Source: a virus
Lineage: Duplodnaviria > Heunggongvirae > Uroviricota > Caudoviricetes
Strand: one strand, 5' to 3'
IMG/VR virus record: IMGVR_UViG_3300033075_001761
DNA length: 64,000 nucleotides
Of the stretch, positions 974 through 17,116 are shown piece by piece; the first letter of the stretch is position 1, and every line of letters begins with the position of its first letter. The notes under the pieces were generated by a model. The model was given only the letters and a program-made list of their open reading frames with translations. It did not search any database and was not told the DNA's origin. A program made the translations under genes and the position numbers.

Positions 974-1028
974 GCATTTATTTCATTGGCTGACCTAAAA
1001 GCGGTTGGCTTTTTTATTGGGAGTTTGT

Positions 1029-1391: not shown

Positions 1392-1427
1392 TCTGAATAC
1401 GAGATTTCGTAATTCGACAGATAAATC

Positions 1428-1468: not shown

Positions 1469-1520
1469 TTTTTCTTTATTGCCATACCATAATCAAGTTT
1501 AGGCAAAACGGGAGGGCGCT

Positions 1521-1931: not shown

Positions 1932-1942
1932 TTACCTTATTT

Positions 1943-1958
1943 GTCCAATCAATTAGAC
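1943..1958. repeat. 16-bp palindromic motif copy, GTCCAATCAATTAGAC (1 mismatch)
   Basis: 12 nt after the stop of gene 1521. Confidence 0.6.
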
Positions 1959-2043
1959 TTTTATTTGTTTTTGACTCATGTCCATAAAAAGACATTTTTA
2001 TAAGCGTACATTGTTGGCTGAGTAGCCAACAAAAGGAGACGCT

Positions 2044-2907: not shown

Positions 2908-3000
2908 GTTCAAAGAAATCTTCGTCTAAAATCTGTTCTATTGAGAACGGATTTTTTTTTGGAAAACTCTTATATTCAATACAATTCATCGGAGATTTTT

Positions 3001-3972
3001 ATGTTTTCTTTGCCAATTCTTTCAACATGCGGAAATGCTTCTGTTTTTGCGATGGGTGCTTTAATATGCACTCAGCCAACACAAAACGCCTCTGTTAAAA
3101 TAAAAGTCCCTCCTACGGATGGACAATTTAGAGCTGTAGATTGCCAGAAAGATCTTACAGAAGACGGAACTCCAGATGACTTTAATTTTGAGAAATTCAG
3201 GAAGGGTTTTTGGCTTTGGAGAAAAACATTAGTTAAAATTTCCGAAACACCAAGTTTTTCTTTTTCAAATCCAAGAAATAACTGCCCAGTGATTGTTTCT
3301 GTGGCATCTAGAGATACAGGTACACAACAAGCCGCAATATTTTTTCAATCAAACCTTTCCTTGGACTTTCAGTACGAGTGTAATGGAGTCACTAAGGAGT
3401 CTTATCTTGCAGATCCAAATAGGGTTGGAAGCTTTGCTGGCTATTGCAGAAGCTTTGTTGGAACTGAGCATAAGCTTCGTGTGAAGCCGTTTAATCAAAA
3501 ATGGGTGCTTAATGCCGTTGGACCTAGCTGTAATTTTTTGTTTAAGACTTCGTGGGATATTCCTGGAGCAAGGCCAGAATTTACAGTGCCCGTTAAAGAC
3601 GGATTCTGCCCGATCTCTTTTGAACTTAAAGAATTGGTTAACGAAAAGGTTCAGATCAAAAAAGGATTCTTTGTAAGCGAAGGGCAATCGAGTTCTTATA
3701 AGCCGATTGATTCTGCAAACTTTGTAAAAGATGATGGGCAGATCAAAATAATTCCTCCTATGTTTGCAAATCTTATGTGGGCAAACGCTATCACTTCTGG
3801 TCAAGTCGTTTGGCAGGGTGATAAAAACAATGGTGTGATTGAAGTGAGTAGCGATAGATTCCTTATGAACACAAAGCTTTGCGCAGCGTCTTATTCAAAT
3901 GAACTTGGTAGCGAAAGCTTTGAATGCATCGATCCACAATCCATGAAAAGGATGCCTTATGAATTTCGATAA
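3001..3972 (+). CDS. cysteine-rich secreted protein
   Basis: ORF track 2941..3972 (TTG start). ATG at 3001 gives MFSLPILSTCGNASVFAMG, a signal-like N-terminus. About 14 Cys. Confidence 0.4.
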   Translation: MFSLPILSTCGNASVFAMGALICTQPTQNASVKIKVPPTDGQFRAVDCQKDLTEDGTPDDFNFEKFRKGFWLWRKTLVKISETPSFSFSNPRNNCPVIVSVASRDTGTQQAAIFFQSNLSLDFQYECNGVTKESYLADPNRVGSFAGYCRSFVGTEHKLRVKPFNQKWVLNAVGPSCNFLFKTSWDIPGARPEFTVPVKDGFCPISFELKELVNEKVQIKKGFFVSEGQSSSYKPIDSANFVKDDGQIKIIPPMFANLMWANAITSGQVVWQGDKNNGVIEVSSDRFLMNTKLCAASYSNELGSESFECIDPQSMKRMPYEFR

Positions 3973-4246
3973 TATTGTTCAGATGATCATGAAGTGGCTT
4001 AGTAGCGGGTCTGTTGGGATCTTTGGCGGAATTTTCGGTGTTTTTGGGCTTGGAATTGCTTATATGATCCTTAAAAAGAGGATTGTTGAGGCGGCGTCTA
4101 ATGCTAAGCTTAAAAAAGATGTAATTGATTCCATGAACGAGGCTCAAGAGATCGCAGTTCAAACATCAAAAGATATGAAAGAAGCTGAAGAAGTTCTAAG
4201 ATCGCAAGACAAAGAAGATGAGGCGATTTTAAGAGGCAAGAAGTAA
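3959..4246 (+). CDS. small single-TM membrane protein (holin-like topology)
   Basis: 95 aa. TM segment GIFGGIFGVFGLGIAYMIL followed by a highly charged C-terminus. Confidence 0.4.
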   Translation: MNFDNIVQMIMKWLSSGSVGIFGGIFGVFGLGIAYMILKKRIVEAASNAKLKKDVIDSMNEAQEIAVQTSKDMKEAEEVLRSQDKEDEAILRGKK

Positions 4247-4259
4247 GAGGGTATACGCT

Positions 4260-4553
4260 GTGTCCAGACCATACCAAGGAAGTAGACAGCCTAATAATAT
4301 TATCAACCTTCAGGTGCTTGAAGCGTTGCCAGATGTTCCTGTTATTATATCTGCAAACCAAGTGATTATTTTGATGCCAATATTTAGATTTTGCGAAGGA
4401 TCTACGCAGTATGTAGATGCGACTGGTGACTATGATTTGTGTATGAGTTTGGATGGGCTCTATTATCAACTTACAAATAGGACGGCATCTCTTTGTAAGT
4501 TTGCATACCGTTGGGTTCCTCCAACGATTATTCAAAGCCTTCGTAATTTGTAA
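4260..4553 (+). CDS. hypothetical protein (GTG start)
   Basis: 97-aa ORF. Start codon uncertain. Confidence 0.3.
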   Translation: MSRPYQGSRQPNNIINLQVLEALPDVPVIISANQVIILMPIFRFCEGSTQYVDATGDYDLCMSLDGLYYQLTNRTASLCKFAYRWVPPTIIQSLRNL

Positions 4554-4562
4554 GGAGAATTT

Positions 4563-5318
4563 ATGGGATTGTTAAGCCAGATTGGAAAACTTCTTACAGA
4601 CAACAAGCCAGTAACGGCGGCGATGTATTCTATGGACCCTGCTAGCGGTCAGGAAAAAGGAGATCCGTTTGTATTTCAATATTTCCCAGAAACTATTAAT
4701 GATACAAAATCTCCTAATTACGACATGAGAAATGCTCCTGGAGGCTCACATCCGATTATTCAATTTAAAGATGGAGGAACAAGAACGATTTCTTTTTCAG
4801 CAATTTTTACACAAGATAAAAAGCCAGAGGATGATTCTGGGCTTCTTGGAACTTTAGGTAATTTGCTTCAAGGAAATCTTTCTGTTTCTTTGACTGGAGA
4901 TGGAAAAGACACTGTTCTTATTGAAGATGCTATCGCTAAACTTAGGGCTTATACATACCCTCAGTACAAAGGCGGAGTTGCCATGGCTCCTCCTACTGTG
5001 CTTTTGTTTTTGCCATATAGCGGGATTGTTGGTCATCCAAATTTTAAAGATTCTATTACCGCAGTAATGACAGAGTGCGGAGTAAATTACTTGGCCTTTC
5101 ACAGATCTGGCCAACCAAGGATTGTGGAAGTTTCTTTGTCTTTTGTTGAAACAATACAAATTTCTAATAATTGGAAATATGTGAGTTACGATGATATTTC
5201 TACAAAAGTTAAAAATGATCTTGGCAAAGAATATTCTTTTAAATCTAATTTTGGTAAAGCGGCTCCAAGCAAATCTTCGCAATCAAAACAAAGCAATGTT
5301 ATTTCTTTGCCTCGATAA
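4563..5318 (+). CDS. putative virion structural protein (tail tube or baseplate-like FxFxYFPETI N-terminus)
   Basis: SD tAAGGAGaatttATG. The motif DPFVFQYFPETI ... IIQFKDGGTRTISFSAIF resembles contractile-tail tube or baseplate LysM-like proteins. This is a weak call. Confidence 0.45.
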   Translation: MGLLSQIGKLLTDNKPVTAAMYSMDPASGQEKGDPFVFQYFPETINDTKSPNYDMRNAPGGSHPIIQFKDGGTRTISFSAIFTQDKKPEDDSGLLGTLGNLLQGNLSVSLTGDGKDTVLIEDAIAKLRAYTYPQYKGGVAMAPPTVLLFLPYSGIVGHPNFKDSITAVMTECGVNYLAFHRSGQPRIVEVSLSFVETIQISNNWKYVSYDDISTKVKNDLGKEYSFKSNFGKAAPSKSSQSKQSNVISLPR

Positions 5319-5383
5319 TTTTTGAGAGTGCCTATTTAGAAGTCATGATAATACTGGTTTAGAAGTCATTAAAGGATTCGTTT

Positions 5384-5566
5384 ATGTTTACAATTGTTCT
5401 TCCAGAAGAGACTTTTAATATCGTAAAAAAAATTGCATCTCAAACTGGCAAGTCTTATGCGGATATTATTTCAATGGGCATTCAAAAACTTATTGAGCCC
5501 ATAAAAGAAGAAGAGAAGAAACATATTGGACGTGTGGCCAGATTTGGCAGTAAACAAAAAGAATAA
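5384..5566 (+). CDS. ribbon-helix-helix (CopG/Arc-like) DNA-binding protein
   Basis: 60 aa. An N-terminal beta-strand (FTIVLPEETF) followed by two helices, typical of RHH proteins. Confidence 0.4.
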   Translation: MFTIVLPEETFNIVKKIASQTGKSYADIISMGIQKLIEPIKEEEKKHIGRVARFGSKQKE

Positions 5567-5567
5567 A

Positions 5568-5583
5568 CTCTAATCAATTAGAC
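5568..5583. repeat. 16-bp palindromic motif copy, CTCTAATCAATTAGAC (1 mismatch)
   Basis: Starts 2 nt after the RHH gene stop. Confidence 0.6.
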
Positions 5584-5597
5584 TTTCTGTAAAGCTA

Positions 5598-6170
5598 TTG
5601 CAGGGGGTCTCTTTGGCCAAGAAAAGCAATTCTTATTATGGGCAGTTTGAAGAAGAGTTAAGCGAAGATAAGCTTGGAAAATCTAATAAAACTAAACAAA
5701 AGCAACAAACATATAAATCAGAACTTCTTTTGATTTGTGATTCAAAGAACATATTTGAGTCTAGTATTGTTTCGTCAATAAGAAAGCATTTTTCAAAAAC
5801 TCAACACGGTATGGTTCATGGCGAACCTTCATCTGGGTACTTAATTGGATTGGTGGTGAAGACACTTTCTCTAAAAAAGAAAGCGGTTTCTTTTGATTAC
5901 GTAATTAAAAAAAAGCATAGGGCAAAAACAAATACAGCATTGTTTATGATTCAAAACTCTTTGGCCAAAGAGTTTTTGATTCCATGCAAGGAGCATAAAG
6001 AGATTGAAAGCCCAGATTTTTATCCAGAGTTTGGGTCCGAAGAAATTCTTATAGAACTGACCGTTGGAGCCTACGGCAGATATTCCGACGATGATTTAAT
6101 CCAAATAGCGGACAGAATCGGATGTTCTATAGTAGAGTGTTTTGATAAATTCATTACAAGCTCTATTTAG
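5598..6170 (+). CDS. hypothetical protein
   Basis: 190-aa ORF. TTG start in the track, so the true start is uncertain. Confidence 0.35.
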   Translation: MQGVSLAKKSNSYYGQFEEELSEDKLGKSNKTKQKQQTYKSELLLICDSKNIFESSIVSSIRKHFSKTQHGMVHGEPSSGYLIGLVVKTLSLKKKAVSFDYVIKKKHRAKTNTALFMIQNSLAKEFLIPCKEHKEIESPDFYPEFGSEEILIELTVGAYGRYSDDDLIQIADRIGCSIVECFDKFITSSI

Positions 6171-6173
6171 GAT

Positions 6174-6443
6174 TTGAGTATGAAAAGCAAAATTGATATT
6201 GATCAAGGTTGGAAGAACTTTGCTAAGCAGTATTGCGAGTTCGAGGGCTATGATACGCAAACAAAACTCGATGTAATCGATATTATTTGCAAAGAAGCCA
6301 ATTCGATTTACAGACTTACGGATGTGTCTCATATTCAAATCAGAGCCGTAAAGCTACAAAAACTAGCAGAAATTTCTACTCACTGCCTAATAGATAAGCA
6401 CATAAATGCTAGACTTGCCTTTTTAAAGTGGTGTTTGACGTAA
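6174..6443 (+). CDS. hypothetical protein
   Basis: 89-aa ORF tightly packed after the previous gene. Confidence 0.4.
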   Translation: MSMKSKIDIDQGWKNFAKQYCEFEGYDTQTKLDVIDIICKEANSIYRLTDVSHIQIRAVKLQKLAEISTHCLIDKHINARLAFLKWCLT

Positions 6444-6453
6444 ACTAAAGCAG

Positions 6454-6822
6454 GTGGATTACATGACATTTACATCATGCCAAGCCTTAGGAACACGGCT
6501 TAGAAACATAGAACAGAATAGTGGAGGGTCTGTAAGTGGCTTTGATGAATTTTCTGTATTCCATGTTCTTCCAGATACCACGGTGGTTATTAAACAAAAT
6601 AGAGAAATGTTGGTTAGTCAGTTTATTGCTGTTGAAGGAACTTTAGAAGTCGATGGAATTTTGACTGTTATTCAAGAGAACCAACCTACTTATGGAATGA
6701 ATTTTGATTTTATAGGTTCAAGGCAAAGTTTAGAAATACCTGTTAATATGCAAATGCTAATAGACCATTCCTTGACCAATTTTGGTACCCTTACCGTAGC
6801 GGGTAGGCTTGTGGTTTTGTGA
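6454..6822 (+). CDS. hypothetical protein (possibly tail-fibre associated)
   Basis: 122-aa ORF immediately upstream of the tail-fibre gene. Confidence 0.4.
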   Translation: MDYMTFTSCQALGTRLRNIEQNSGGSVSGFDEFSVFHVLPDTTVVIKQNREMLVSQFIAVEGTLEVDGILTVIQENQPTYGMNFDFIGSRQSLEIPVNMQMLIDHSLTNFGTLTVAGRLVVL

Positions 6823-6829
6823 GGGAAAA

Positions 6830-7930
6830 ATGAGTCAAATTAAATTAAAAGAAGAGCTAGAAAGTACAATTGGCAATCCTCCGACAGGCCAGCAAACATT
6901 TTTTATTGACTTGGCAGATGGTCATTACAAAAAGAAAATGCCAGACGGGACTGTAATTGATTTTGAATCGGCAGCTAATTATTCAGATGAAAAAGCACAA
7001 GATGCTATCGGAGGAATTTTAGACGATACTGCGTCCGTTAAATTTACATATAACGATGGGCTACCAGAAATATCAGCAATCGTTCTTGCTTCTGGCGTAG
7101 ATCACGATTCATTAATGAACTTTGTTTCCGACGAACATATTGCTCACGCTTCTGTTTCTATCGCCGCTGGAAATGGTCTTGTAGGTGGAGGAAACATATC
7201 GGCATCAAGAACTATTTCTATGCCCGACGTAGGCGCTTCTGGTACGTACGGAAGCCCATCGGTTGTTCCTGTTATTACAACAGATGCCCAAGGAAGAGTG
7301 TCTTCTGTTACAAACACTCCAATTGTAATTGTCCCTAGCTCTGTGTCTGGATTTGACGAATCAGCGCAGGATGCAATTGCCAGTGCATTAACAGATTCAC
7401 CGTCTGTAGCATTTTCTTACAATGATATTTCAGATCAAATTAGTGCAAACGTTTTGGCTTCTGGCGTCAATCACAATACTTTGCAAAACTATTTGGCAAA
7501 CGAACATGTAAGCCATAGCGCAGTAAGCATACTTGCTGGGCCAGGGCTTGTTGGCGGAGGAGATCTGACGGCCTCTAGAACGCTTGAACTCCCAACATTA
7601 GGCGCTTCTGGTGTTTACGGATCTTCTGGAACGATCCCAGTTATTCAACTTGACTCTTACGGAAGGGTTGTGGCGGCTTCTTCTGAGGCAATTGGCGCAC
7701 AAACAATTCAATCTATTTCTGGAATCTCAGAACAGTATGGGTTTATCCAAGCTTCAGATAGTCTTTTACAAGCTTTAAGCAAACTTCAATATACTCAGTC
7801 TATCCAGAAGTATTTAGTAAATCAGGATGTGACAATTGAAGACGGAGAAACTTGGATAAGAGATAGAACCAAATTAGTAGGGACTGCTAAGGTAACTCTT
7901 GTTGGCTCTGCTAAGATGAAATTAATTTAA
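6830..7930 (+). CDS. tail fibre protein with two phage tail-fibre repeats (Phage_fiber_2-type)
   Basis: Two copies of the G.GL.GGG.L.ASRT..L...GASG.YGS......DAQGRV repeat (residues ~118-175 and ~233-290), as known from lambda Stf and P2 H side fibres. ATG at 6830 with GAGGGA SD. Track ORF 6809. Confidence 0.65.
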   Translation: MSQIKLKEELESTIGNPPTGQQTFFIDLADGHYKKKMPDGTVIDFESAANYSDEKAQDAIGGILDDTASVKFTYNDGLPEISAIVLASGVDHDSLMNFVSDEHIAHASVSIAAGNGLVGGGNISASRTISMPDVGASGTYGSPSVVPVITTDAQGRVSSVTNTPIVIVPSSVSGFDESAQDAIASALTDSPSVAFSYNDISDQISANVLASGVNHNTLQNYLANEHVSHSAVSILAGPGLVGGGDLTASRTLELPTLGASGVYGSSGTIPVIQLDSYGRVVAASSEAIGAQTIQSISGISEQYGFIQASDSLLQALSKLQYTQSIQKYLVNQDVTIEDGETWIRDRTKLVGTAKVTLVGSAKMKLI

Positions 7931-7942
7931 GGGAGATACGAC

Positions 7943-9079
7943 ATGGCTTTAGTTGAGTTTGATAACCAATCGGCATCAGGCATTGCCACTCCTGGTTCTG
8001 GTTATACTTCTGTGTTTGTTGATGCATCCGATAAAAAATTAAAAACAAAAGATGATACAGGAGCCGTTACTGATTATTCGGCGCCAGGAAATTCAATTAC
8101 GCAATTGACTGGAGAAGTGACTGCTGGACCTGGGCCTGGTTCTGTTGCTGCTACAGTTTCAAATGCGGCTGTAATCGGTAAAGTCCTGACTGGATATACT
8201 GTTCTCTCAGGAAACGTCTCTGCTACGGATACAATCTTGCAAGCGATTGGAAAGCTTTCTACGCGATCTGGAAACGCCATGTACGGAGCAGGAACGGATG
8301 GCGACCAAACAATCACAGTAGACACAACACTTGTAAAAGACATGTATTACAACAATCTTACAATTAATGCTGGAGCTACTGTATTTACAGCAGGGTACAG
8401 AATTACTGTATACGGAACGTTAACACTTCCTTCTGGCGCATTTATTAAGCGCGAAGGAAATAATGGGGTTCTAAGCGTTGCGGGAGCTGCACAAGCTGCT
8501 GGCACTCTTCCTGGATTTGTGGCTGGCGGAGCTGGGCAAACGGGCGCAGGAACCGCTGGTACGGCGGTTTCAAACGCATTTGGAGGTTCTGGAGGCGCAG
8601 GAGGAGCTGGCGTATCTGGAGGTGGAGGCGCTGGAGTTGCGACTGTTCCTGCCGCTACAGTCGGCGGAATTGATATTGCTTACAACGTGAATTTCGCTTC
8701 TGTGATGCAAGTTCTACCAGGAACTCTTGGAACTGGAGCTGGCGGAGGAGGCGGAGGAGGCGGAGCTGGCGTAGGATTCCCTGGAGGCGGAGGAGGAAGC
8801 GCAGGTGGCGTTGTTGTTATTCGTGCCCGTAGCATTGCCGGAGCTGGGACTGTTTCTGTTATCGGCGGAAACGGAGGCGCTGGCACGAGCGGAGGCGGAA
8901 ATACAGGAGGAGGCGGAGGAGGCGGAGGAGGAGTGATTGTTGTTATTAGCGACAACGACCCTTTGTTGACTACTACAATTACCTTCACTGTAACGGGAGG
9001 AATTGGCGGACCTGGAGGAGCTTCTGGTGCTTCTGGAGCAAATGGAGCCAATGGACGTACATTCTTCTTGAGGCCGTAA
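7943..9079 (+). CDS. glycine-rich tail fibre or spike-like protein
   Basis: Conserved fibre-like N-terminus (TPGSGYTSVFVDASDKKLKTKDDTGAV). The C-terminal half is G-rich runs alternating with short beta-strand segments (VVVIRARSI, VIVVISDND), suggesting a beta-helix. Confidence 0.55.
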   Translation: MALVEFDNQSASGIATPGSGYTSVFVDASDKKLKTKDDTGAVTDYSAPGNSITQLTGEVTAGPGPGSVAATVSNAAVIGKVLTGYTVLSGNVSATDTILQAIGKLSTRSGNAMYGAGTDGDQTITVDTTLVKDMYYNNLTINAGATVFTAGYRITVYGTLTLPSGAFIKREGNNGVLSVAGAAQAAGTLPGFVAGGAGQTGAGTAGTAVSNAFGGSGGAGGAGVSGGGGAGVATVPAATVGGIDIAYNVNFASVMQVLPGTLGTGAGGGGGGGGAGVGFPGGGGGSAGGVVVIRARSIAGAGTVSVIGGNGGAGTSGGGNTGGGGGGGGGVIVVISDNDPLLTTTITFTVTGGIGGPGGASGASGANGANGRTFFLRP

Positions 9080-9080
9080 T

Positions 9081-9713
9081 ATGAAGTGGTTGGTTTTTGA
9101 GCTCATAGATCGAACAGTAATGGGAATGTACGAATCTGTAGAAGTAAATTTAGGTGCAATCGTGTCTTCTTTGCCTTTGCTCCATATAGAACTTCCTGAT
9201 GGAGTGCTTCCTACAAACTGCGTTTTGACTGGCAACGAAGGTACGTATGAAGTGATTGCAGGAGCTCCATTGCAGGAGCCTGCTGCTATCACACCAGCAG
9301 AGATTGTTGCGGCTTCTGAAGCTGGAAGAAGGAAGGCTCTTTCGAGTGCTAGATACTGTATTGTGACTTCGTTTAACCAAGGACTTACACATGACCAATG
9401 GACTGGTTATGATGAGTCTTTGCCAGGAGACAAAGTCCCTGTTGTAATTCCTGTTAAAAGCAAACTCAGGGAAATTACATTTTCGTGGCCAGAGACTAGT
9501 GTGGATGGAATTTTTCAGCTTTATAAAAACGGAAAAGACATAGCAAACATTGTTTTTTCTCATACTTTTTCAAATTCAGGACCTTCTGTTGTGACTGGAA
9601 TTGAAGTTCAACTAGAGGTTGGAGATCTTATTAGAGGCCGCTGGAAAGACTCAGGGGAAAATCCAACGGATGCGGCAATAACATATGTATTAGAGGTTAT
9701 TGACGATGGCTAA
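9081..9713 (+). CDS. hypothetical protein (tail-fibre module)
   Basis: 210-aa ORF starting 1 nt after the fibre gene stop. Confidence 0.45.
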   Translation: MKWLVFELIDRTVMGMYESVEVNLGAIVSSLPLLHIELPDGVLPTNCVLTGNEGTYEVIAGAPLQEPAAITPAEIVAASEAGRRKALSSARYCIVTSFNQGLTHDQWTGYDESLPGDKVPVVIPVKSKLREITFSWPETSVDGIFQLYKNGKDIANIVFSHTFSNSGPSVVTGIEVQLEVGDLIRGRWKDSGENPTDAAITYVLEVIDDG

Positions 9714-10527
9714 ATTTTTAAAAAACAAAACTGTACTTACAAAAACATATCAGGGAAGATCTTTTGCTCCAGATGTTTTTGTTGAAATACCAGATTCTTC
9801 TATTTACGATTTTGCAAATGATTTAGAAATTTTGGCCGATATCATTGCCGGAAATTGTGCAATGAGTTCGGACGGAAGCACTGAAATTGTTGACAAGAGT
9901 GAACAGATAAATTTCTTAAAAGGAATGGTTCTGTCTGCAAAAGACGCTGATGGAGCTTTGCTAAGTCGCGTCAAAACAACTAAGGCGGGTTGGCACTATG
10001 AGCCTCGCTCTATCAACTTTGTAACTGGAAAACCATCTTCCCATTACAACAGAAGGCATAACGGCGGTTCTATTATGGCCGGAACTGACTATGGCGATGC
10101 CATTTTAAGATTCTGGAATGCTTCTGACATAGAACTTATAAAGGGCGTTGAAGAGAGTGATGTTGATTTTCAAACGAGAGTTGCTTCAGACTGCACAAAA
10201 TCATGTCTTGACTGGCATCCTACATATTCCATGGAGATTGTTGGCGGGATGTTGCAGATCTTTGAGCCGCCTACAACTGACGCATACATGTGGGCAATCA
10301 TCGCTCCCGACATCCCCGAAGCTTACGGTGGAAGCGTCCCTTTCCTTGCTGGCGGGTTCAACCTCAAGTTTTTCAAAAGTGGATCACTTGAGCACTACGA
10401 CGGGCGATCTGCAAAGTTGATCAACCCTGACTTTTTGTACAACTCAAGTAAATTCAGAATTGTCGTTAAGCATGACGTTGGTGTACATATCGGAATTCAG
10501 GTTTATTTCGAGCATTTCAGAGCATAG
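9700..10527 (+). CDS. hypothetical protein (tail-fibre module)
   Basis: 275-aa ORF overlapping the previous by 14 nt. Confidence 0.45.
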   Translation: MTMAKFLKNKTVLTKTYQGRSFAPDVFVEIPDSSIYDFANDLEILADIIAGNCAMSSDGSTEIVDKSEQINFLKGMVLSAKDADGALLSRVKTTKAGWHYEPRSINFVTGKPSSHYNRRHNGGSIMAGTDYGDAILRFWNASDIELIKGVEESDVDFQTRVASDCTKSCLDWHPTYSMEIVGGMLQIFEPPTTDAYMWAIIAPDIPEAYGGSVPFLAGGFNLKFFKSGSLEHYDGRSAKLINPDFLYNSSKFRIVVKHDVGVHIGIQVYFEHFRA

Positions 10528-10535
10528 GTTCATAT

Positions 10536-10694
10536 ATGGAAACAGTCGTTGTAAAAAAAGATGAATATTTAGAGATTTTAAATATTTCAACTCTTGCTAT
10601 AGAGGCTTGTCAGGCGGGAGCTATTGAGGAGCTTTATTTATCTTTGATTCGAGAACATGTTGAGGTTTATTTAAAACTGAAAGGGCAGGAATGA
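10536..10694 (+). CDS. small hypothetical protein (52 aa)
   Basis: Below the ORF-track threshold. Its ATGA overlap with the next small ORF suggests translational coupling. Confidence 0.25.
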   Translation: METVVVKKDEYLEILNISTLAIEACQAGAIEELYLSLIREHVEVYLKLKGQE

Positions 10695-10843
10695 AAGAGT
10701 TTCTAGGAGTTTCTTATAGAGATCTTGGCAAAAACAAATGGGAGCTTGTTTGGCCTTCTGGACTTAAAGCAAGACTGATGGCTAACACTGAAGAAGAAAT
10801 TAAAGCTAAAATCCAAGAGGTTGTATCTATGTTAGAAACATGA
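10691..10843 (+). CDS. small hypothetical protein (50 aa)
   Basis: Below the ORF-track threshold. Start overlaps the previous stop (ATGA). Confidence 0.25.
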   Translation: MKEFLGVSYRDLGKNKWELVWPSGLKARLMANTEEEIKAKIQEVVSMLET

Positions 10844-10858
10844 CTTCTTGGAGGATAT

Positions 10859-11530
10859 ATGAATCTTACGGCTCAGATTATTTCATTTTTCATGGAGTCT
10901 CGGCCTTGGGTTTGGTTATTAAGAAAAGTTATTAGCGTTCTTCATTTCCGTCTTATTGGATATCCTAAATATAAAATAGAAAAGTATTATCAAATAAGAA
11001 ATATTCTTAGAGACAATTTAGATACTAAAAAGATTTATGGTTTTGTATCAAAAGACTCTCAAAGCCTTTCTTATATATTCAATAGAATATTTACCGGAGC
11101 TAAGTGGAGTCATGCTGGCGTTGTTCAGCTTCTTGAAGACGGAGAAGTTGGAATTGTTCATATGCTTGGTAATGGAATGAACTTTGATTATTTAATTGAG
11201 TTATTGAAAGAGTGTGATGAGTTTAAATTGTTAGAACTTCCATTTGATGAAGAAGAACAAAGTACAGCTAAATCAAGGTTAGAAAAGCTCATTACAGTTA
11301 GTAATCAAATTGATTATGACTTTGGATTTTCCATCTCTCATGAAGCCTTAGATTATGTTGAAGGCAAGATCTCGATCAAAAATACAAGCAAGAGGCTTAA
11401 GCTTTATTGCAGTGAATTATGCTGGGTTTTAGGGGTAAAAGAAGGTAACGAATTTGCTCTAAGAAAGATCCAAGGCAAAGAAGTTTTTGAGCCAGATGAT
11501 GTGATCGCAATTTCAAAAGTTATTTTTTAA
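10859..11530 (+). CDS. putative permuted papain-fold peptidase (YiiX/C92-like)
   Basis: SD GGAGGatatATG. His (WSHAGVV) precedes the Cys (YCSELCW), the permuted order seen in YaeF/YiiX-type peptidases. Motif-level only. Confidence 0.4.
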   Translation: MNLTAQIISFFMESRPWVWLLRKVISVLHFRLIGYPKYKIEKYYQIRNILRDNLDTKKIYGFVSKDSQSLSYIFNRIFTGAKWSHAGVVQLLEDGEVGIVHMLGNGMNFDYLIELLKECDEFKLLELPFDEEEQSTAKSRLEKLITVSNQIDYDFGFSISHEALDYVEGKISIKNTSKRLKLYCSELCWVLGVKEGNEFALRKIQGKEVFEPDDVIAISKVIF

Positions 11531-11554
11531 TTTGTTTTTTAATTTTATTTTCTA

Positions 11555-11665
11555 TTCAAGCTTTTAGTTTGAATGGAGTTTCTTTTATTTGACTTTTAGT
11601 TTTTATGGAATTTTTTTAGTTTGATTTTAGTTTTTATGGAATTTTTTTATTTGGATTTTATCTTG
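11555..11665. repeat. tandem ~30-bp direct repeats (TTGA(C)TTTTAGTTTTTATGGAATTTTTTTA), iteron-like
   Basis: Two near-identical copies at 11589-11618 and 11621-11649, plus degenerate flanking copies. AT-rich. Confidence 0.6.
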
Positions 11666-11673
11666 GAAAGAAC

Positions 11674-11820
11674 CCGTCGCTTGACTGGAGAGCCAAATCA
11701 GATAACCTGACAAACCAATCAAGCGACAAGGGGGGGGGAACAATCCTTCTTGAAGCGCACTAACTTCACAAAAGGCTTCAGCAACCCGAAGTTAGAGCGA
11801 CTTCTCCCCCCTTGTCAAGA
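11674..11820. other. nested inverted-repeat (multi-hairpin) element with G9 and C6 tracts. Candidate origin or structured leader
   Basis: Three stem pairs: 11676-11688 with 11715-11727 (GTCGCTTGAYTGG), 11726-11738 (GACAAGGGGGGGG) with 11806-11816, and 11752-11767 with 11788-11804. Confidence 0.5.
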
Positions 11821-11837
11821 AAGACGAGGGATTTTTT

Positions 11838-14258
11838 TTGTTTTTTAAGTTAGAAGACATTCACACAGTAAATCTCTCTAAGCCTCTAAAGAGCATTAAG
11901 CATAAGTTTTTTGATGATATTGGATGCACAAACTATCTTCCGGTCTATCCTTTAAAAAAGCTATATAAAGCAGCAGATATAACTTCCTTTGATCAAATTC
12001 TATTTAGCCTTATTTTGTGGCGTTCTAGAAACAAGCATAAGTGTAGTTTCTACGAGCAATCTGCCAGCACGTTTTCTGGAATTCTTAAAATCGACGTAGC
12101 CACAGTTACAAGGTCTCTACAGAGGCTAAAGCACGTTGGGCTACTGAGAATGGCTGAGAAGCCAGAAAACGCTTCTGCGTTCTTTAAACGGCACTTTTAT
12201 ATACCAAAGTGCATAGAGACTGACGGCAATCCTTTTTTGATCCCCTTAGAGGTATTGAAAGATAAAAACCTCACATGGGATCAAAAACTGATCTACGGAG
12301 AGGTTTGTTACAAATTCGCTATTCAGGAAAGGCATGGCTTTGGGAAGTTCAAAACCATGGAGGGTTTTGTTCCTCTTGGAAAAAAGCGTTTAAAAGCCAG
12401 GATTTCAAGAAGTGAGAATTATTTCTGGAAACGCTGTAAAGAGTTGGAAGAGATGGGCTTGGTTCGGATAGAGAAGAGAATTATCGATAAAACGTTAGTC
12501 TGGTTTTATTCGCTCAATAAATTAGCAGACTCTTATGGGAAGAAAGAATCCTTTCAGGAAATAGAACAAGTCATTTCTGAGTCAATAAAGAGCAAAAGAG
12601 CTAAAAAGTACAAGAGATCTGTCAAAAAGGTCCATGAGGGTTCCTTTGGCCAAGAGACCGAAAAGATAAAGGAAATGGATCGAGAATTATGTTTGTTGTG
12701 TGACATGGAAGAACAGGAAAAAGAAGAAGTTCCTTCTTCTTATTCTTCTTATAGTATTAATAATATTATATCTGAGGAGAATTTTTCATTATTAGAGAAA
12801 GAATTAGATAATGAAATCAACTTAGCTTCGGTAGATTGCGGGAGCTATTTAGAAGAAGAGGATATTCTGAGTGAAAAAGTTCCTTGCGTGAGCTTGCGTG
12901 AGCTTGCGGGAGCAGAGGATATTCTGAGTGAAAAAATAGATCCTTTGCATTGTATTTTAAAGGAAAGTTTTTCAGTTTTAAATAAAGAAGTTGTAATGGA
13001 TCTCGCACCTTCGGTGCTCGATCGAAATGTTTTTGGAGAAAATTCTGTCGGAAAATGTTTAAGGGGATCGGGAACCAATCCCCCTACCCCCTTTCCTATT
13101 GGAGCTTGTTTTTATAGCAATCGAAAGAGAGCACGTTTAGAGGCCCGAGAAGCTCTTAAACTCACGAGGTATAGCCAATCTATAGGGCGCATACGGAACG
13201 TGAGCGTAGGCAAGGCCAAATCAATTCTTTGGGCATGGTTTAAGACTGAGATTGAGCGCAAGGCGATCGTTGGAGAGCGGTTCCATGAAGACGCATTGGG
13301 GATTGAGCAAGCAGAGGCCAAGAAAAAACTGATGCGTAAGTACAAGAAGAGATATGCGCAGATGATAGAAATTGGAGCGAAAGAGATACTTCAGAGTGGT
13401 AAGACGCCATATTTTTCTACACTTGGGATGATTGTTCATACGAACAAAGGGGATTTCATTATGAGTTCAGATTGGAGAGCGAACAAAGAGTTGAATGAGG
13501 CTAAGCGGATAAAGAATAAGGAAGAGCGGAAAGAAAAGACAAAATCAGCGGTGGAGAAAGCCTTGTCCAAAATGCAGGTAGCGGCTGATGTTAAGATGCT
13601 TGGCAATGGTTTTTTCATAAGCACAGTGGAAGAATTTCCAGAAGTGAAGTCTAATCGATTGGACATTTTTGCTAAAGAGATGAAGAAGTCCAAATTCAAA
13701 GATAAAACAAAGAACCACAAAATTGATAACGAATCGAGACAAGAAGGCGAAAGTCATAACGAGTGGTTGTTGAGGATTTCTAAGCGAAAAGCCATTGTTG
13801 CGTATGAGAAATTCTTCTTGGAAGGCGGACCTAGCAATGTGGACAAATCGGATTTGGCTGTTCTTGACAACGCACTTTCTCAGTTGATACAGGAGAAAAC
13901 TCTTAAAGATCCCGAATCTGTGGCGCTCTACATTGAAAGAGCCTCTTGTGAATCAGATTTTCGAGAAAAGGTTGGTCTTTGGCAATTGAATCGATGCAAA
14001 AAACAAGATTTTAGGATTCGCCAGATTTTTGGAAATTACAACATAGGGTGTTTTGTGAAATACATAAGAGATTACCTAGATTGGGATATTTCAGACTCCT
14101 CTAAAAAATCTGCTGTTCAGATGGATCGAGAGAATTTAAAGGTCTTTCATGACGACTCACAGGAAGTCATGGATGAGTTGAATCGAAGCTATTTTGAGCG
14201 ACTTAAGAGGTTAAAAGAGGACATGTTGGCAAGGGATCAACAAAATCAGAATGCTTAA
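11838..14258 (+). CDS. large replication-associated protein with winged-helix-like motifs, internal repeats and a K/E-rich coiled coil. Putative initiator or helicase loader
   Basis: 806 aa with a TTG start. Two wHTH-like segments (TVTRSLQRLKHVGLL and KRCKELEEMGLVRIEKR). Sits directly upstream of DnaB and DnaG and downstream of iteron-like repeats. Function is inferred from context. Confidence 0.45.
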   Translation: MFFKLEDIHTVNLSKPLKSIKHKFFDDIGCTNYLPVYPLKKLYKAADITSFDQILFSLILWRSRNKHKCSFYEQSASTFSGILKIDVATVTRSLQRLKHVGLLRMAEKPENASAFFKRHFYIPKCIETDGNPFLIPLEVLKDKNLTWDQKLIYGEVCYKFAIQERHGFGKFKTMEGFVPLGKKRLKARISRSENYFWKRCKELEEMGLVRIEKRIIDKTLVWFYSLNKLADSYGKKESFQEIEQVISESIKSKRAKKYKRSVKKVHEGSFGQETEKIKEMDRELCLLCDMEEQEKEEVPSSYSSYSINNIISEENFSLLEKELDNEINLASVDCGSYLEEEDILSEKVPCVSLRELAGAEDILSEKIDPLHCILKESFSVLNKEVVMDLAPSVLDRNVFGENSVGKCLRGSGTNPPTPFPIGACFYSNRKRARLEAREALKLTRYSQSIGRIRNVSVGKAKSILWAWFKTEIERKAIVGERFHEDALGIEQAEAKKKLMRKYKKRYAQMIEIGAKEILQSGKTPYFSTLGMIVHTNKGDFIMSSDWRANKELNEAKRIKNKEERKEKTKSAVEKALSKMQVAADVKMLGNGFFISTVEEFPEVKSNRLDIFAKEMKKSKFKDKTKNHKIDNESRQEGESHNEWLLRISKRKAIVAYEKFFLEGGPSNVDKSDLAVLDNALSQLIQEKTLKDPESVALYIERASCESDFREKVGLWQLNRCKKQDFRIRQIFGNYNIGCFVKYIRDYLDWDISDSSKKSAVQMDRENLKVFHDDSQEVMDELNRSYFERLKRLKEDMLARDQQNQNA

Positions 14259-14284: not shown

Positions 14285-14836
14285 ATGAGTGTTGATGTTA
14301 GCCTTATAGAGAACGAGAAGAGAGCGCGATGTCTTGTAAGAATGCGAAAGGCAAACATCCCGTCATCTATGGCTGATATGCAATACGACGAAATTTGCGG
14401 TCGATTTTTTCTTGAGACGATTGCTCCAGGCGGGCCGTTGTCGTCAAAAACATTTTTTATGTTTGATATTGAGTCAATAGGAGGGAAGATTCCGATAGGT
14501 CATTTCATGAGATCTATTGCAAGAATTGATGCAAATTTTTGCGGTGTATTTTATGTAAACTTATCCAATGGTTTTGACGTAGATTTTGAAGTCTATGATT
14601 ACTCAGGAAATTATACCGGAAATTTTTCTCATTTCGGCGGTTTTTTATTTTTGGTTTATGAGCACGAACTTACAAAAGAAGAAAGCTGCGAGCTTTTAAA
14701 GATTTTGCTTAGGCGCGTAGAGGGCTGTCAGCCTACAATAATTTTTACAAAAAAAGATTTGTTAAGAAGATTGTCAGAAGCAAATAAAAGTTCTTTTGAA
14801 GAAGTTAAAAAGTCATTTAAATCGGTGGGACTATGA
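14285..14836 (+). CDS. hypothetical protein
   Basis: 183-aa ORF with a GGAG SD. Overlaps the dnaB-like start by 4 nt. Confidence 0.45.
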   Translation: MSVDVSLIENEKRARCLVRMRKANIPSSMADMQYDEICGRFFLETIAPGGPLSSKTFFMFDIESIGGKIPIGHFMRSIARIDANFCGVFYVNLSNGFDVDFEVYDYSGNYTGNFSHFGGFLFLVYEHELTKEESCELLKILLRRVEGCQPTIIFTKKDLLRRLSEANKSSFEEVKKSFKSVGL

Positions 14837-16158
14837 GTAATTTGGATAAAGTTTATTTAAAATCTTTATTATCTATTAGAGATTCTGAAAAATTTCTTAG
14901 CCATCAGATTAATGATTCTTTTCTTTCTTCTGGTTACGATAAAATATACTTATATATTATTGAGTGTTTTAAGAAATATGGAAGCATTGCTGATGTAGGT
15001 CATATCGAAGAATATTTTAGTGTAGACCTAAAATCTAGCCCTACAGTTTCTATTGAGCAGGCAAAGAATCTTATAAGGGCAAGATTTGGTTTTGATTTAG
15101 TGAATGAGAATTTTAAAAAAATAAATGAGTCTTTTCAAAGCAGCACTGAAAAAGATATTGATCGATATCTAAAAGATATGATTTCTGTTGTGTTTGACGC
15201 AGAGAAAAAAGCTACAGCAGGAGTTTCTTCTTATTATAATTTATTTGATATGAAGAATTATAGCCAGGAGGTTCTTACATCTGGAAAGCCAAGTCAAAAG
15301 AGTATTGACACTCCGTTTCCGAGCTTGACTGAGCGCATGGGAGGAATGAAGCCAGGAGATCTTATTACATTAGCTGCACGAGCGGGCATAGGTAAGACAT
15401 TCATGCTTCTTCAGTTTATGATTCATGCGGCAAACCAGGGCAAGAAGTGTTTGTTGATCACAACAGAGATGAGTTTGGATCAGATTAAGAATAGGTTTAT
15501 TTCTTTGTATGGAGAGATAAAAGTAGGAAAGCCTCCAAAAAACCAATTGAGCTTGGAAGACTTTTCTAGGTTTATGGAAAAGGTTAAGGAAGCGAGAGAA
15601 GGCTCTGAGATTGGAGTGATTGATAGTGGATTTTCAATGACAGTAGAAGACATTGAAATCGATATTTTGAAAAACAAGCCGGATTTTCTTTGTATTGACG
15701 GATTTTATATTTTGAGAACAAAGAATACACATAGAGATAAGTTTAACAGAATTGCAGAAATCATGGACACAATAAAAGGATATGCGCTTAAATATAACAT
15801 ACCGATTCTTGTTACCTCACAATTAAACAGAGGAACTGGAGAATCTGTGAGCTATGGAAAATCGAAGCCAAAAACTCCTCAGATTGGCGGGTTGGAGAGA
15901 TTGGCATTTTCTGACAACATAGCAATGGTTTCTGATTATGTATTTTTTATGGATCATCCTATGACATCTGAGAGACAGTCTATAACTGATGTGATGACGC
16001 TTGCGCCAAGGAAGATGAGACAGGTATTCACGCAGAATGGATTTTCTGACATACATATTAAGTGGGATATACATAACATTGTGTTTAAGGAAGATCTTTT
16101 TTGGGAGCATCCAGACAAGGTGAAAGAGATCGAGAAGGCAACAAACTGGCTGAAGTGA
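14833..16158 (+). CDS. dnaB: DnaB-family replicative DNA helicase
   Basis: GDLITLAARAGIGKTFMLLQF (Walker A in the DnaB C-terminal RecA-like domain), Walker B-like FLCIDGFYIL, and an N-terminal helical domain. Confidence 0.7.
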   Translation: MSNLDKVYLKSLLSIRDSEKFLSHQINDSFLSSGYDKIYLYIIECFKKYGSIADVGHIEEYFSVDLKSSPTVSIEQAKNLIRARFGFDLVNENFKKINESFQSSTEKDIDRYLKDMISVVFDAEKKATAGVSSYYNLFDMKNYSQEVLTSGKPSQKSIDTPFPSLTERMGGMKPGDLITLAARAGIGKTFMLLQFMIHAANQGKKCLLITTEMSLDQIKNRFISLYGEIKVGKPPKNQLSLEDFSRFMEKVKEAREGSEIGVIDSGFSMTVEDIEIDILKNKPDFLCIDGFYILRTKNTHRDKFNRIAEIMDTIKGYALKYNIPILVTSQLNRGTGESVSYGKSKPKTPQIGGLERLAFSDNIAMVSDYVFFMDHPMTSERQSITDVMTLAPRKMRQVFTQNGFSDIHIKWDIHNIVFKEDLFWEHPDKVKEIEKATNWLK

Positions 16159-16168
16159 TTGAGTATGG

Positions 16169-17116
16169 ATGGAATATTCGGTTGATGTAGAAGAAATTTT
16201 AACAAAAATGGGTGTGTCCAAGATTGCAAGATCTGGGCACAACATAAATTCTACTTGTCCGTTCTTTTTTAAACACTCCGATGGGAAAGACTCCCATCCA
16301 TCATTTTCTGTTGAAGCAAATCCTCCGTATAGGGCGATATGCGGAGGATGTGGAACCAAGGGAACAATCATTTCTTTATGCCATCAGTATTTTCAAGAGA
16401 CTGGTGTATCAATACTAGAGAAAAAAAACTCTGATTTTAATAAACTAGAATGGAAGTCTAGAGTAAAATTTTTTAATAAAAATGATGCAAATTTTATTGG
16501 TCATTTAATGTTTAATTTTGATGACTATAAGAAATACTGTAGGCAGTTGCCTCAATATGCAATTGACAGAGGGATTACGGTTTCTCAGGCCAAGAGATGG
16601 AATCTTGGGTTTAATCCAGAGACAAAAAGGTTGTTTATACCAGTGTTCAGTAAGACTGGAGCTTTTGTAGGATATTCAGAGAGAGATGTGACTGGGTTTT
16701 CTTCACCAAAGTACAAGCATGCAAAAGGATTTAAGAGAAATCTTTATTTGTATGGAGAGCATTTTTTGGACAAGTCGAGCCCTATTTGTTTTTTGAGTGA
16801 AGGATTTTTTGATGTGTATAGCCTAGAGAGGGCAGGGCTAACAAATTGTTTTGCATCCATGGGTACGGTTCCATCTAAGGACCAGGTTAACTTTTTATGC
16901 CAGTTTGAGTATATTGTGATTTTTCCGCACCAAGATAAGGCGCAGGCTGATGGAACTAGACCTGGTGTCCGTATGGCCGAAGCGTTTAAGACAGAGCTAG
17001 AAAACAGGTATAAAACAGTTTTGTTGGCACCTTTTGTGGGCGGCTATAAAGACGTTGGTGATTGGCCGATCGAGAGTGTTCATAAAGTTGTTGAGGAACT
17101 TTTGAAAGATATTTGA
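16169..17116 (+). CDS. dnaG: DnaG-type DNA primase (zinc-binding domain plus Toprim)
   Basis: CHC2 zinc finger CPFFFKHSDGKDSHPSFSV...CGGCGTKG. Toprim FLSEGFFDVYSL...ASMGT. Confidence 0.65.
   Translation: MEYSVDVEEILTKMGVSKIARSGHNINSTCPFFFKHSDGKDSHPSFSVEANPPYRAICGGCGTKGTIISLCHQYFQETGVSILEKKNSDFNKLEWKSRVKFFNKNDANFIGHLMFNFDDYKKYCRQLPQYAIDRGITVSQAKRWNLGFNPETKRLFIPVFSKTGAFVGYSERDVTGFSSPKYKHAKGFKRNLYLYGEHFLDKSSPICFLSEGFFDVYSLERAGLTNCFASMGTVPSKDQVNFLCQFEYIVIFPHQDKAQADGTRPGVRMAEAFKTELENRYKTVLLAPFVGGYKDVGDWPIESVHKVVEELLKDI

Follow-up and report, generated by a model that had tools for sequence, protein, structure and literature searches.

The locus described here lies at a module boundary in a tailed-phage-like genome of at least 129 kb, of which we analysed a stretch of 64 kb (the window), and a promoter and a regulator are therefore expected there. 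Tail genes lie upstream, the neighbouring one C92-amidase-like, and replication genes lie downstream, in the order 806-aa gene, 183-aa gene, DnaB (14833-16158) and DnaG (16169-17116), the last two as reported in an earlier note on this DNA. That note regarded the gap between the modules as the largest structured non-coding block of the window and as a candidate replication origin, iteron-dependent or protein-primed. The gap does hold the top folding outlier of the window, but at 307 nt it is only the second-longest intergenic region, the longest being 372 nt (41805-42176, by a crude ORF call). The positions of the features discussed below are collected in Table 1.

The 806-aa protein is an orphan. 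The wHTH domain attributed to it earlier amounts to two weak signals, both below threshold; it has no Pfam match above threshold (and no Rep_trans domain) and no PDB match, and searches of 5.8 billion and 1.84 billion proteins returned nothing other than the protein itself. An AlphaFold model of its N-terminal 260 residues, computed without an alignment, had a pLDDT of 38 and was unusable. Partial homologues are encoded on three related sequences (L003, L004 and L006), and both the N-terminus (LFF...HKFF.DIGCTNYLPVYP) and the reading frame are kept in L004 and L006 without indels. The sub-threshold wHTH matches and the gene order weakly suggest that the protein is initiator-like. Only three related loci were found, one close (L006) and two more distant (L004 and L007). 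Since the last two are the same at this locus, there are three distinct variants, including the window, and co-variation statistics are correspondingly weak. Blastn against phage and plasmid collections gave no match, and searches of IMG/VR and the JGI metagenomes with protein patterns and degenerate DNA patterns gave no relatives.

Table 1. Features at the boundary between the tail and replication modules (positions in the window).
Feature	Position	Strand	Basis
Weak AT-rich terminator-like hairpin and T-tract of the upstream gene	11550..11590	+	terminator scan
Three tandem AT-rich repeats of 31-32 bp	11561..11655	.	found in the window strain only
Terminator of the predicted countertranscript: interrupted 24-bp hairpin (complement of 11673-11730), then UUCUUUCC (complement of 11665-72)	11665..11730	-	
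Predicted countertranscript (ctRNA), about 117 nt	11666..11782	-	ends from promoter and terminator
Putative promoter of the initiator-like gene: TTGACT (11681-86), 16 nt, TAACCT (11703-08)	11681..11708	+	inferred
Predicted 5' leader of the 806-aa gene	11715..11837	+	promoter and start codon
Long antiterminator (pre-emptor) hairpin P2	11725..11816	+	inverted repeats, folding
Putative antisense promoter: UP-like A-tract (complement of 11832-46), consensus -35 TTGACA (complement of 11813-18), 18-nt spacer, TAACTT (complement of 11789-94)	11789..11846	-	sequence, conservation
Intrinsic terminator T: CCCTTGTC (11809-16), loop AAGAAA, GACGAGGG (11823-30), A, T8 (11832-39)	11809..11839	+	terminator scan in the window, L004 and L006
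SD-like GAGGG (11826-30) and TTG start codon (11838-40)	11826..11840	+	conserved frame
806-aa orphan protein gene, first of the replication module	11838..14258	+	

The GC-rich part of the gap (11673-11846) is the strongest-folding 160-nt stretch of the window, and it is the top outlier on both strands in a GC-corrected folding scan of the whole window. Folded as RNA it has z-scores of -4.7 (plus strand) and -7.4 (minus strand), with none of 200 shuffles equally stable, and folded as DNA it has z-scores of -4.6 and -4.8. The earlier description placed three inverted-repeat pairs in this block, and all three exist: GTCGCTTGACTGG (11676-88) with CCAATCAAGCGAC (11715-27), GACAAGGGGGG (11725-35) with CCCCCCTTGTC (11806-16), complementary at 11 of 11 positions, and CGCACTAACTTC (11756-67) with GAAGTTAGAGCG (11788-99). 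They are not all nested, however; the third lies within the second and the first lies alongside. The G9 and C6 tracts were found at 11730-38 and 11806-11. The outer stem that would enclose all three pairs is a weak pairing, CCCGTC (11673-78) with GAC..GGG (11823-30), of just 6 bp with a bulge; it is weaker still in L006, and we rejected it as a functional helix. Identity to L006 is 86-90% across the block (11668-11846), about 73-85% across most of the flanking coding DNA, and 61-68% in the repeat zone upstream, the lowest value of the locus. RNAalifold applied to these two close sequences showed one-sided changes only. The Rfam 15 covariance models gave no match at the gathering score in the whole window, only chance-level matches at the locus with E up to 10, and nothing in L004 or L006; a tRNA/tmRNA search was likewise empty. 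Small ORFs within the element, on either strand, are limited to unsupported frames of 21-38 aa, mostly with TTG starts.

On the plus strand, a putative promoter would start transcription near 11715. Its motif is identical in L006 and reads TTGACT-16-TAGCTT in L004, within a block conserved at 16 of 20 positions; the -10 is weak (3 of 6 matches to TATAAT) and the promoter was not called by a consensus scan. The predicted leader can adopt two structures. The first, P2, is the hairpin whose base is formed by the second inverted repeat (GACAA...TTGTC), with an inner stem of 11752-67 with 11788-11804 and a small side hairpin at 11736-46. The second is the intrinsic terminator T, which was flagged independently at the equivalent place, directly before the start codon, in all three variants, with a U-tract of seven or eight residues that in L006 begins 3 nt past the stem. 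The 5' arm of T is the 3' arm of P2, with 8-9 nt in common, and the two structures are therefore mutually exclusive. The minimum-free-energy fold contains P2, and when the 5' arm of P2 is blocked T forms instead, in each of the three variants.

This arrangement is preserved although the sequence of the arms changes. The arms of T are CCCTTGTC/GACGAGGG in the window, CCTTGTC/GACAAGG in L006 and CCTTTTGTC/GGCAGAAGG in L004, where both arms are one base longer and still matched, and where U·G-to-U-A switches keep pairing on the plus strand only; T is more stable on the plus than on the minus strand in the window and in L004. The P2 of L004 has the same GACAA...TTGTC base, a different but complementary interior (GACAAAAGAACC with GGTCCTTTTGTC), and ends 12 nt before GGA-T8, with the same spacing as in the window. 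The 5' arm of P2 thus co-varies as well (GACAAGGGGGG versus GACAAAAGAACC), so that all three arms, namely the P2 5' arm, the shared arm and the T 3' arm, change together between the window or L006 and L004. The SD-like sequence lies inside the 3' arm of T, and the TTG start codon is made up of the last two T of its U-tract and a G; SD sequences of the GGAG type precede 29 of the 44 genes. The earlier note had offered, as its fallback, that the hairpin block extends to the SD and TTG start and might act as a translational control element. Both signals are indeed where it placed them, and its fallback can now be sharpened, the evidence supporting a terminator/antiterminator switch that also sequesters the SD.

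A second set of signals lies on the minus strand. The putative antisense promoter is kept in L006, and L004 has TTGACA-18-TAACCT at this position with an unrelated spacer; the A-tract, which occupies the position of an UP element, is the minus-strand view of an invariant T8GT6. The -10 is again weak (3 of 6 matches to TATAAT), and the promoter does not pass a consensus scan. Sites of the form TTGACW-N16-18-TAnnnT are uncommon, with just six occurrences in 128 kb counting both strands, and two of these six face one another within this 140-nt element. A scan of GTDB genomes for the A-tract and TTGACAA pattern gave 13 matches, none of them related by tblastn, and ten of these 13 unrelated bacterial sites have a hexamer with 5 or 6 of the 6 TATAAT positions 16-17 nt downstream; they are ordinary promoters and served as a control.

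The transcript predicted to start here would be 104-127 nt long depending on the variant. Its 5' part contains a C9 run in single-stranded form and complements the P2 5' arm, and its 3' part is a terminator hairpin. In the window this hairpin has a folding energy of -34.1 kcal/mol on the minus strand versus -22.7 kcal/mol on the plus strand, an advantage for the minus strand that amounts to 11-12 kcal/mol in the window and L006. Of its 24 pairs, 8 are G·U on the minus strand, where the plus strand would have A·C mismatches. In both sequences UUCUUU follows the hairpin, and at the corresponding site L004 carries a canonical minus-strand terminator; nearby there is no gene on the minus strand for such a terminator to serve. 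Comparing the paired regions of the window and L006, about five substitutions keep pairing on the minus strand only, at the base of hairpin P3 (11688, G in the window and A in L006), at the P2 apex and in a GGG-to-GGA change, and two keep it on the plus strand only (11758 C-to-U and the U·G-to-U-A change in T). These strand-specific substitutions fit functional RNAs made from both strands. Outside the two terminators the strand signal is mixed, because the apical part of the L004 P2 pairs better on the plus strand and the L004 region as a whole has no greater stability on the minus strand.

The block is best explained as the regulatory leader of the 806-aa initiator-like gene, overlapping a small antisense RNA gene, and the switch is probably set by this cis-encoded antisense RNA. 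According to our model, transcription of the replication module would start just upstream, at the TTGACT-16-TAACCT promoter, and by default the nascent leader would fold into P2, leaving the SD free and preventing the terminator. The opposite strand would yield the countertranscript of about 117 nt from the A-tract/TTGACA/TAACTT promoter, ending after the long G·U-rich hairpin and UUCUUU. Pairing of the countertranscript with the 5' arm of P2 would free CCCTTGTC to pair with the SD-containing GACGAGGG, giving a terminator whose U8 ends on the TTG start codon; transcription would stop, and any read-through mRNA would have its SD sequestered. In its full form, that is countertranscript-driven transcription attenuation combined with SD sequestration, of the pT181/pIP501 kind, placed before an initiator-like orphan gene in a large uncultivated phage, we give this model about even chances. 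Sequence and folding directly show the alternative folds and that they exclude one another, how these are conserved and co-vary across the three variants, and the wobble pairs specific to one strand; from these we infer both promoters, the existence and ends of the two RNAs, and the regulatory outcome. A large, apparently lytic phage has no obvious need for a control of the copy-number type.

In pT181 and pIP501, a pre-emptor precedes a terminator that lies immediately 5' of the rep start and contains the RBS, and the antisense promoter is within the leader (PMC5703833). The present element resembles the RNAI/repC leader of pT181, from the staphylococcal Rep_trans plasmids, in that the pre-emptor P2 competes for the 5' arm of the terminator by pairing with it (in three of three variants), in that a rho-independent terminator with the RBS lies immediately upstream of the initiator-like start codon (again in all three), and in that the predicted antisense terminator would give a product complementary to the pre-emptor region of the leader, within a range of about 50-150 nt; a countertranscript of about 90-120 nt, complementary to the leader as in pT181, is predicted to free the terminator arm. 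It differs from pT181 in lacking any sequence or protein homology, the 806-aa protein matching neither the Rep_trans nor the PriCT_1/RepR initiator family; in its carrier, which is a large phage-like genome and not a small RCR plasmid; in its antisense -35, which falls within the terminator loop; and in its U-tract, which serves at once as start codon, as first two Phe codons and as UP-like A-tract of the antisense promoter. The L004 leader, of 258 nt with an internal antisense unit, resembles in layout RNAIII/repR of pIP501 (and of pAMbeta1 and pSM19035, also inc18 theta plasmids), although the initiator is unrelated and no gene for a CopR-like small HTH repressor is seen beside the element. 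As with RNAI of pSK41, a RepA_N plasmid with antisense-induced RBS sequestration, the induced hairpin holds the SD and would block translation too; unlike in pSK41, there is no RepA_N domain, and the seven or eight U after the hairpin mean that termination is also expected.

An unlikely reading, yet one that deserves consideration, is that the block works purely in cis, as an attenuator or a translational operator, with no antisense RNA, the choice between P2 and T being made by a ligand, by transcription kinetics or by a protein (for example the 806-aa protein regulating itself, or an early phage protein), and the minus-strand signals being coincidental. The P2/T alternative, the SD sequestration and the conservation would hold whatever the trigger, and the weak antisense -10 is in its favour. 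On the other hand, a purely cis-acting device gives no purpose to the hairpin with 8 G·U pairs, which in the window and L006 is stable on the minus strand only, nor to the canonical minus-strand terminator of L004; it leaves the conserved minus-strand consensus TTGACA and A-tract unexplained, and the block belongs to no Rfam family even at permissive thresholds.

The origin proposed by the earlier note included the tandem repeats upstream of the block. It counted two to four copies, and a repeat search of the window gave three, at 11561-11592, 11593-11624 and 11624-11655 (TRF: period 31, 3.2 copies, 11562-11660, score 141). They lie in a zone with a GC content of 0.21-0.29, 26-120 bp upstream of the -35 of the putative rep promoter. 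Their 25-nt core, TTTTAGTTTTTATGGAATTTTTTTA, occurs exactly twice (11594-11618 and 11625-11649) and nowhere else in the window, where shuffles expect none, and no paralogous copy of the repeat unit or of the element was found elsewhere in the window. A repeat-like sequence, GGATTTTTTTTGTTT, is seen again at the start of the 806-aa gene, and internal repeats lie within that gene at 12854-12935. The founder copy is the 3' half of the upstream gene's own terminator-like hairpin (11550-11578 in the terminator scan, followed by TTTCTTTTAT), whose arms CTATTCAAG...TTGAATAG are kept in L006. The array consists of two extra copies of this 3' half and its T-tract, and since these extra copies are nearly perfect the strain-specific duplication is young. 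A ToxI-like (type III antitoxin) reading of the repeats was dropped, as they have no Rfam support and are AT-only.

That the wHTH protein binds the 31-bp repeats, with the AT-rich zone melting and the hairpins helping to load DnaB and DnaG, is in our view improbable. As in the iteron origins of P1 RepA, lambda O/ori, R6K and pPS10, helically phased direct repeats adjoin a gene with wHTH signals, here in one strain and followed by DnaB and DnaG, and the repeat-like sequence at the gene start would suit such an origin. However, the array is absent from L006, whose DNA is 78-90% identical across the 5' half of the 806-aa gene (encoding the N-terminal wHTH region), and from L004 and L007, and no set of three or more direct repeats is kept in these relatives that share the initiator-like gene. 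The repeats are AT-only and recently duplicated, no part of the locus is less conserved than their zone, and the adjacent AT-rich zone, present in the window and L006, gives way in L004 to normal GC except for about 40 nt. What is conserved is a structure of the RNA type with strand-specific G·U pairs. GC skew is positive throughout the 64 kb, with no sign change anywhere and a mere step up at the module boundary, from about 0.13 to about 0.23, evidence that is weak given that the genes are co-directional and the window is half of the genome. On the comparison with relatives, then, the repeats are neither conserved iterons nor the core of the element; it is possible that they form an UP-like or curved region upstream of the promoter, or that they are a neutral slippage duplication. 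Sequence alone leaves room for an origin function somewhere in or near the locus.

Slightly less probable still is a free-standing structured small RNA, from either strand and with a target in trans such as a host mRNA or defence system, or a bidirectional compound terminator between the modules. Either would agree with a structure that is strong and conserved and that ends like a terminator on each strand. Against both, the upstream gene is already provided with a terminator-like hairpin, the minus strand has no gene in need of one, the replication module would be silenced if termination at the start codon were constitutive, and the three-way co-variation of the P2 5' arm, the shared arm and the T 3' arm is specific to a switch.

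Least probable is an origin primed by RNA, of the ColE1 or T4 oriF type, in which the structured, G-rich plus-strand leader, where it escapes termination, would stay on the DNA as an R-loop and prime synthesis, with the antisense RNA as inhibitor setting the initiation frequency, like RNA I against RNA II. A predicted sense/antisense pair of structured RNAs does lie at the head of the replication module, the window has a G9 tract and some prophages have RNA-based replication systems (PMC7157519), but the G9 tract is only G6 in L006 and absent from L004, the conserved terminator sits exactly on the SD and start codon of a protein gene, a position that speaks for gene control and not for making a primer, and GC skew does not switch in the window. 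If true, an RNA would govern the origin of a large uncultivated phage, the initiator-like protein of which is without a detectable homologue in 1.8 billion protein clusters.

The antisense-controlled leader that we favour would correct an appealing but probably wrong origin call; tandem repeats beside a rep-like gene are not iterons unless they are kept by relatives. Antisense-RNA attenuation of initiator genes is textbook knowledge for small Gram-positive plasmids, and a literature search turned up no description of it ahead of the replication genes of a large tailed phage. If real, the element would mean that phages use countertranscript timers in the style of plasmids to set the dose of their initiator or to shut it off. 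The switch would be compact, about 170 nt long, would require no dedicated protein and could be put to new use in synthetic biology. Several signals overlap in it, the U-tract being terminator tail, start codon and antisense promoter A-tract at once, and the antisense -35 lying within the loop of the terminator.

The structured block in the 307-nt gap between the tail-side and replication modules is probably the leader through which the 806-aa gene is regulated in cis, and its most economical reading, to which we give an even chance, is that of a countertranscript-driven attenuator. This interpretation is computational and draws on three sequence variants. The genome is large and phage-like, with nearly all window genes on the plus strand, including a tail-tube-like gene, an endolysin, an RNA ligase, a UvsX-like recombinase, DnaB and DnaG, and a 129,001-bp contig from JGI carries the window sequence too, as do two Logan runs. 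No minus-strand gene lies near the element. The replication genes follow it directly, as the earlier note had stated. The sequence also shows the inverted repeats described there, together with both homopolymer tracts, G9 and C6, and the block is the most structured outlier of the entire window on both strands in a GC-corrected scan. Its RNA fold lies well outside shuffles (z = -4.7 plus, -7.4 minus), its DNA fold is likewise far beyond them, and no match was found to Rfam, tRNA or tmRNA. GC skew rises from ~0.13 (1-12000) to ~0.23 (12000-52000) at the module boundary, its sign unchanged. The window's longest intergenic gap (372 nt, GC 0.38-0.45) is another one, moderately structured on the plus strand at 41921-42080 (residual z about -3) and with no match in Rfam.

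Features of the locus and of related sequences (window positions unless a Logan assembly sequence, L004 or L006, is named)
Feature	Coordinates	Strand	Details
Last gene of tail-side module	10859-11530		upstream of gap; weak C92 amidase match
Terminator hairpin of upstream gene	11550-11578		weak
Tandem repeats	11561-11655		three 31-32-bp units
Predicted antisense RNA	11666-11782	-	ends in terminator hairpin P3
Long hairpin P2	11725-11816	+	shares an arm with T
Small terminator-like hairpin	11776-11791; L006 3326-3341	-	CTTCGGGTTGCTGAAG, then CCTTTTGT
Hairpin T, window	11809-11839	+	CCCTTGTC-AAGAAA-GACGAGGG-A-T8; terminator scan
Hairpin T, L006		+	CCTTGTC-AAGAA-GACAAGG-AAC-T7; terminator scan
Hairpin T, L004		+	CCTTTTGTC-AATAC-GGCAGAAGG-A-T8; terminator scan
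Replication module	806-aa ORF 11838-14258	+	downstream of gap; 806-aa ORF first, then 183-aa ORF, DnaB, DnaG
Stretch within acidic linker of 806-aa protein	12740-12935		48-nt deletion in L006
AT-rich stretch in linker	12740-12800		GC 0.27; upstream of internal repeats
25-nt direct repeats	12854 and 12911		AG(A/C)AGAGGATATTCTGAGTGAAAAA; two copies
Short repeats between them	12883-12913		3.1 copies of CTTGCGTGAG
Additional leader, L004	2424-2603		about 180 nt, structured
Promoter-like motif, L004	2481-2454	-	TTGACC-16-AATAAT
Longest intergenic gap	41805-42176

The phage belongs to a highly isolated lineage. Searches of 5.8 billion proteins and of 1.84 billion cluster representatives gave no homologue of the 806-aa protein, and no relatives were found in IMG/VR, JGI metagenomes, GTDB genomes, GenBank phages or PLSDB; the sole relatives of the protein, reached via genes next to it and the 90% clusters of those genes in Logan assemblies, are fragments in three sequencing runs (L003, L004 and L006). 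In L003 the gene is represented by its C-terminal part alone (C-terminal 200 aa 78% identical), L006 is about 80-90% identical to the window in DNA, and L004, the same as L007 over this region, has an upstream protein 73% identical to the window's. The intergenic comparison thus covers three distinct versions (window, L006 and L004/L007). Domain searches with the protein returned two weak wHTH signals and a weak PHROG 'replication initiation' match, and no domain above threshold, Rep_trans and PriCT included.

The motif GGA-(T/C)T7-G-T6 is kept in all three versions and contains an SD-like AGG(G)A 8-9 nt ahead of the TTG start, in a genome where SDs of the GGAG type are the rule; the reading frame from the TTG is conserved throughout without indels (LFF...HKFF.DIGCTNYLPVYP). 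Just upstream of the start, every version carries an intrinsic-terminator-like hairpin, T, whose arms co-vary, a matched one-base lengthening included, and in which U·G-to-U-A switches keep pairing on the plus strand only. Its plus- and minus-strand energies are -13.6 vs -10.4 kcal/mol in the window and -14.1 vs -4.3 in L004; in L006 (-10.3 vs -11.7) the plus strand is not favoured, and the U-tract lies 3 nt away from the stem. The 5' arm of T doubles as the 3' arm of the much longer hairpin P2, which has a conserved base (GACAA with TTGTC), an interior that differs yet stays complementary (GGGGGG/CCCCCC vs AAGAACC.../...GGTCCTT), an end exactly 12 nt ahead of the GGA in the window and L004, and, in L004, an apex that pairs better on the plus strand. 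All three versions fold into P2 when unconstrained and into T once pairing of the P2 5' arm is blocked. As judged from sequence, this layout is what one expects of a transcription attenuator that would also hide the SD, and the conservation of T and P2 in every version supports the fallback suggestion of the earlier note, a control element at the SD and TTG of this gene. The additional leader of L004 lies between the TTGACT motif and P2, with its promoter-like motif on the left side of the antisense terminator. The same phage's assembly from SRR32380201 (L002) begins at window position 11828, just past the T stem, a break that may reflect the homopolymer/hairpin region, low coverage or a physical end.

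On the opposite strand, TTGTCAA reads as a consensus -35 (TTGACA), with an A-tract (AAAAAACAAAAAAAA) ahead of it at the position of an UP element and, 18 nt past it, TAACTT (window, L006) or TAACCT (L004) across a spacer unrelated between window/L006 and L004. A plus-strand TTGACT-16-TAACCT (TAGCTT in L004) lies upstream within a block conserved at 16/20 positions; the window as a whole has only six occurrences of this promoter-like pattern, two of them pointing at one another within the element. Both putative promoters have weak -10 hexamers and are missed by a consensus scan. Among 13 unrelated bacterial sequences matching 'TTGTCAA-N8-12-GRANY-T7-G-T6', none encoding relatives and all serving as an unplanned control, 10 have a hexamer identical to TATAAT at 5 or 6 of 6 positions, 16-17 nt past the opposite-strand TTGACA, and the A-tract plus TTGACA pattern is therefore a promoter signature. 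In unrelated bacteria from the gut and the environment, among them Clostridia, Lentisphaeria and Saccharibacteria (GTDB genomes, L008-L020), A6CA8-N-TTGACAA recurs as an A-tract/UP-like element before consensus sigma-70-type promoters. A canonical minus-strand terminator lies ~100 nt downstream of the putative antisense promoter in L004; the window and L006 have a 24-bp interrupted minus-strand hairpin followed by UUCUUUCC. On the minus strand G·U accounts for eight of its pairs, all of which would turn into A·C mismatches on the plus strand; the minus strand is favoured by 11-12 kcal/mol, and a G-to-A change at 11688 in L006 leaves the pair intact on the minus strand only. The L004 region as a whole has no extra stability on the minus strand. 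The predicted antisense RNA (104-127 nt) would be complementary to the P2 5' arm, with its C-run single-stranded; that it drives the leader seems to us about as probable as that it does not. The small minus-strand hairpin at the P2 apex coincides with the predicted 5' end of this RNA.

The block had been proposed in the earlier note as an iteron-type replication origin. An origin could also sit at another site; one example is the part of the 806-aa gene that encodes the linker and bears repeats, the layout of which is reminiscent of lambda, where ori lies inside gene O; to judge from its sequence, this region could be an alternative origin or equally a mere variable linker. The tandem repeats at the gap itself are real (TRF and a repeat finder), with 25-nt cores identical in two of the three units and absent elsewhere in the window, and alignment of the related loci found no array in L006 or L004/L007. 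The first 'copy' is made up of the loop, 3' arm and T-tract of the upstream gene's terminator hairpin, which is also found in L006, and the window exceeds L006 by two nearly perfect additional copies (about 62 nt). The repeat zone, at 61-68% identity with indels, is the lowest within the 5-kb comparison of window and L006; the hairpin block, at 86-90%, equals or exceeds most flanking coding DNA. The AT-rich zone of the window and L006 has no clear counterpart in L004, where GC is normal apart from about 40 nt, and GC skew never changes sign across the window, with no switch at the locus. Taken together, these results give the iteron-type origin no support, and we consider it unlikely. Mycobacteriophages include prophages with RNA-based origins (PMC7157519); an RNA-primed variant here, the most novel of the readings, seems to us slightly less likely still.

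In a countertranscript-driven attenuator, P2 would fold by default and the replication module would be transcribed and translated; pairing of the antisense RNA with the nascent P2 5' arm would let T fold on the start codon and sequester the SD. Plasmid pT181 has a pre-emptor and a stem-loop IV, with the RBS within the terminator, and pIP501 has a long leader with an internal antisense promoter and an inverted repeat plus poly-T just 5' of rep (PMC5703833). The phage leader, with its pre-emptor P2 and RBS-bearing terminator, fits the published pT181 logic, and the element likewise fits the attenuation logic published for pIP501. The likeness is one of function, not of homology. The 806-aa protein lacks Rep_trans, PriCT and any other supra-threshold domain. 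No phage precedent for ctRNA attenuation at such a place was found in the literature searched. The kind of mechanism, plasmid ctRNA attenuation, is already known. Its place here would be unusual, in front of an orphan protein where the replication module begins, in a phage whose genome measures at least 129 kb. The signals of the element overlap compactly.
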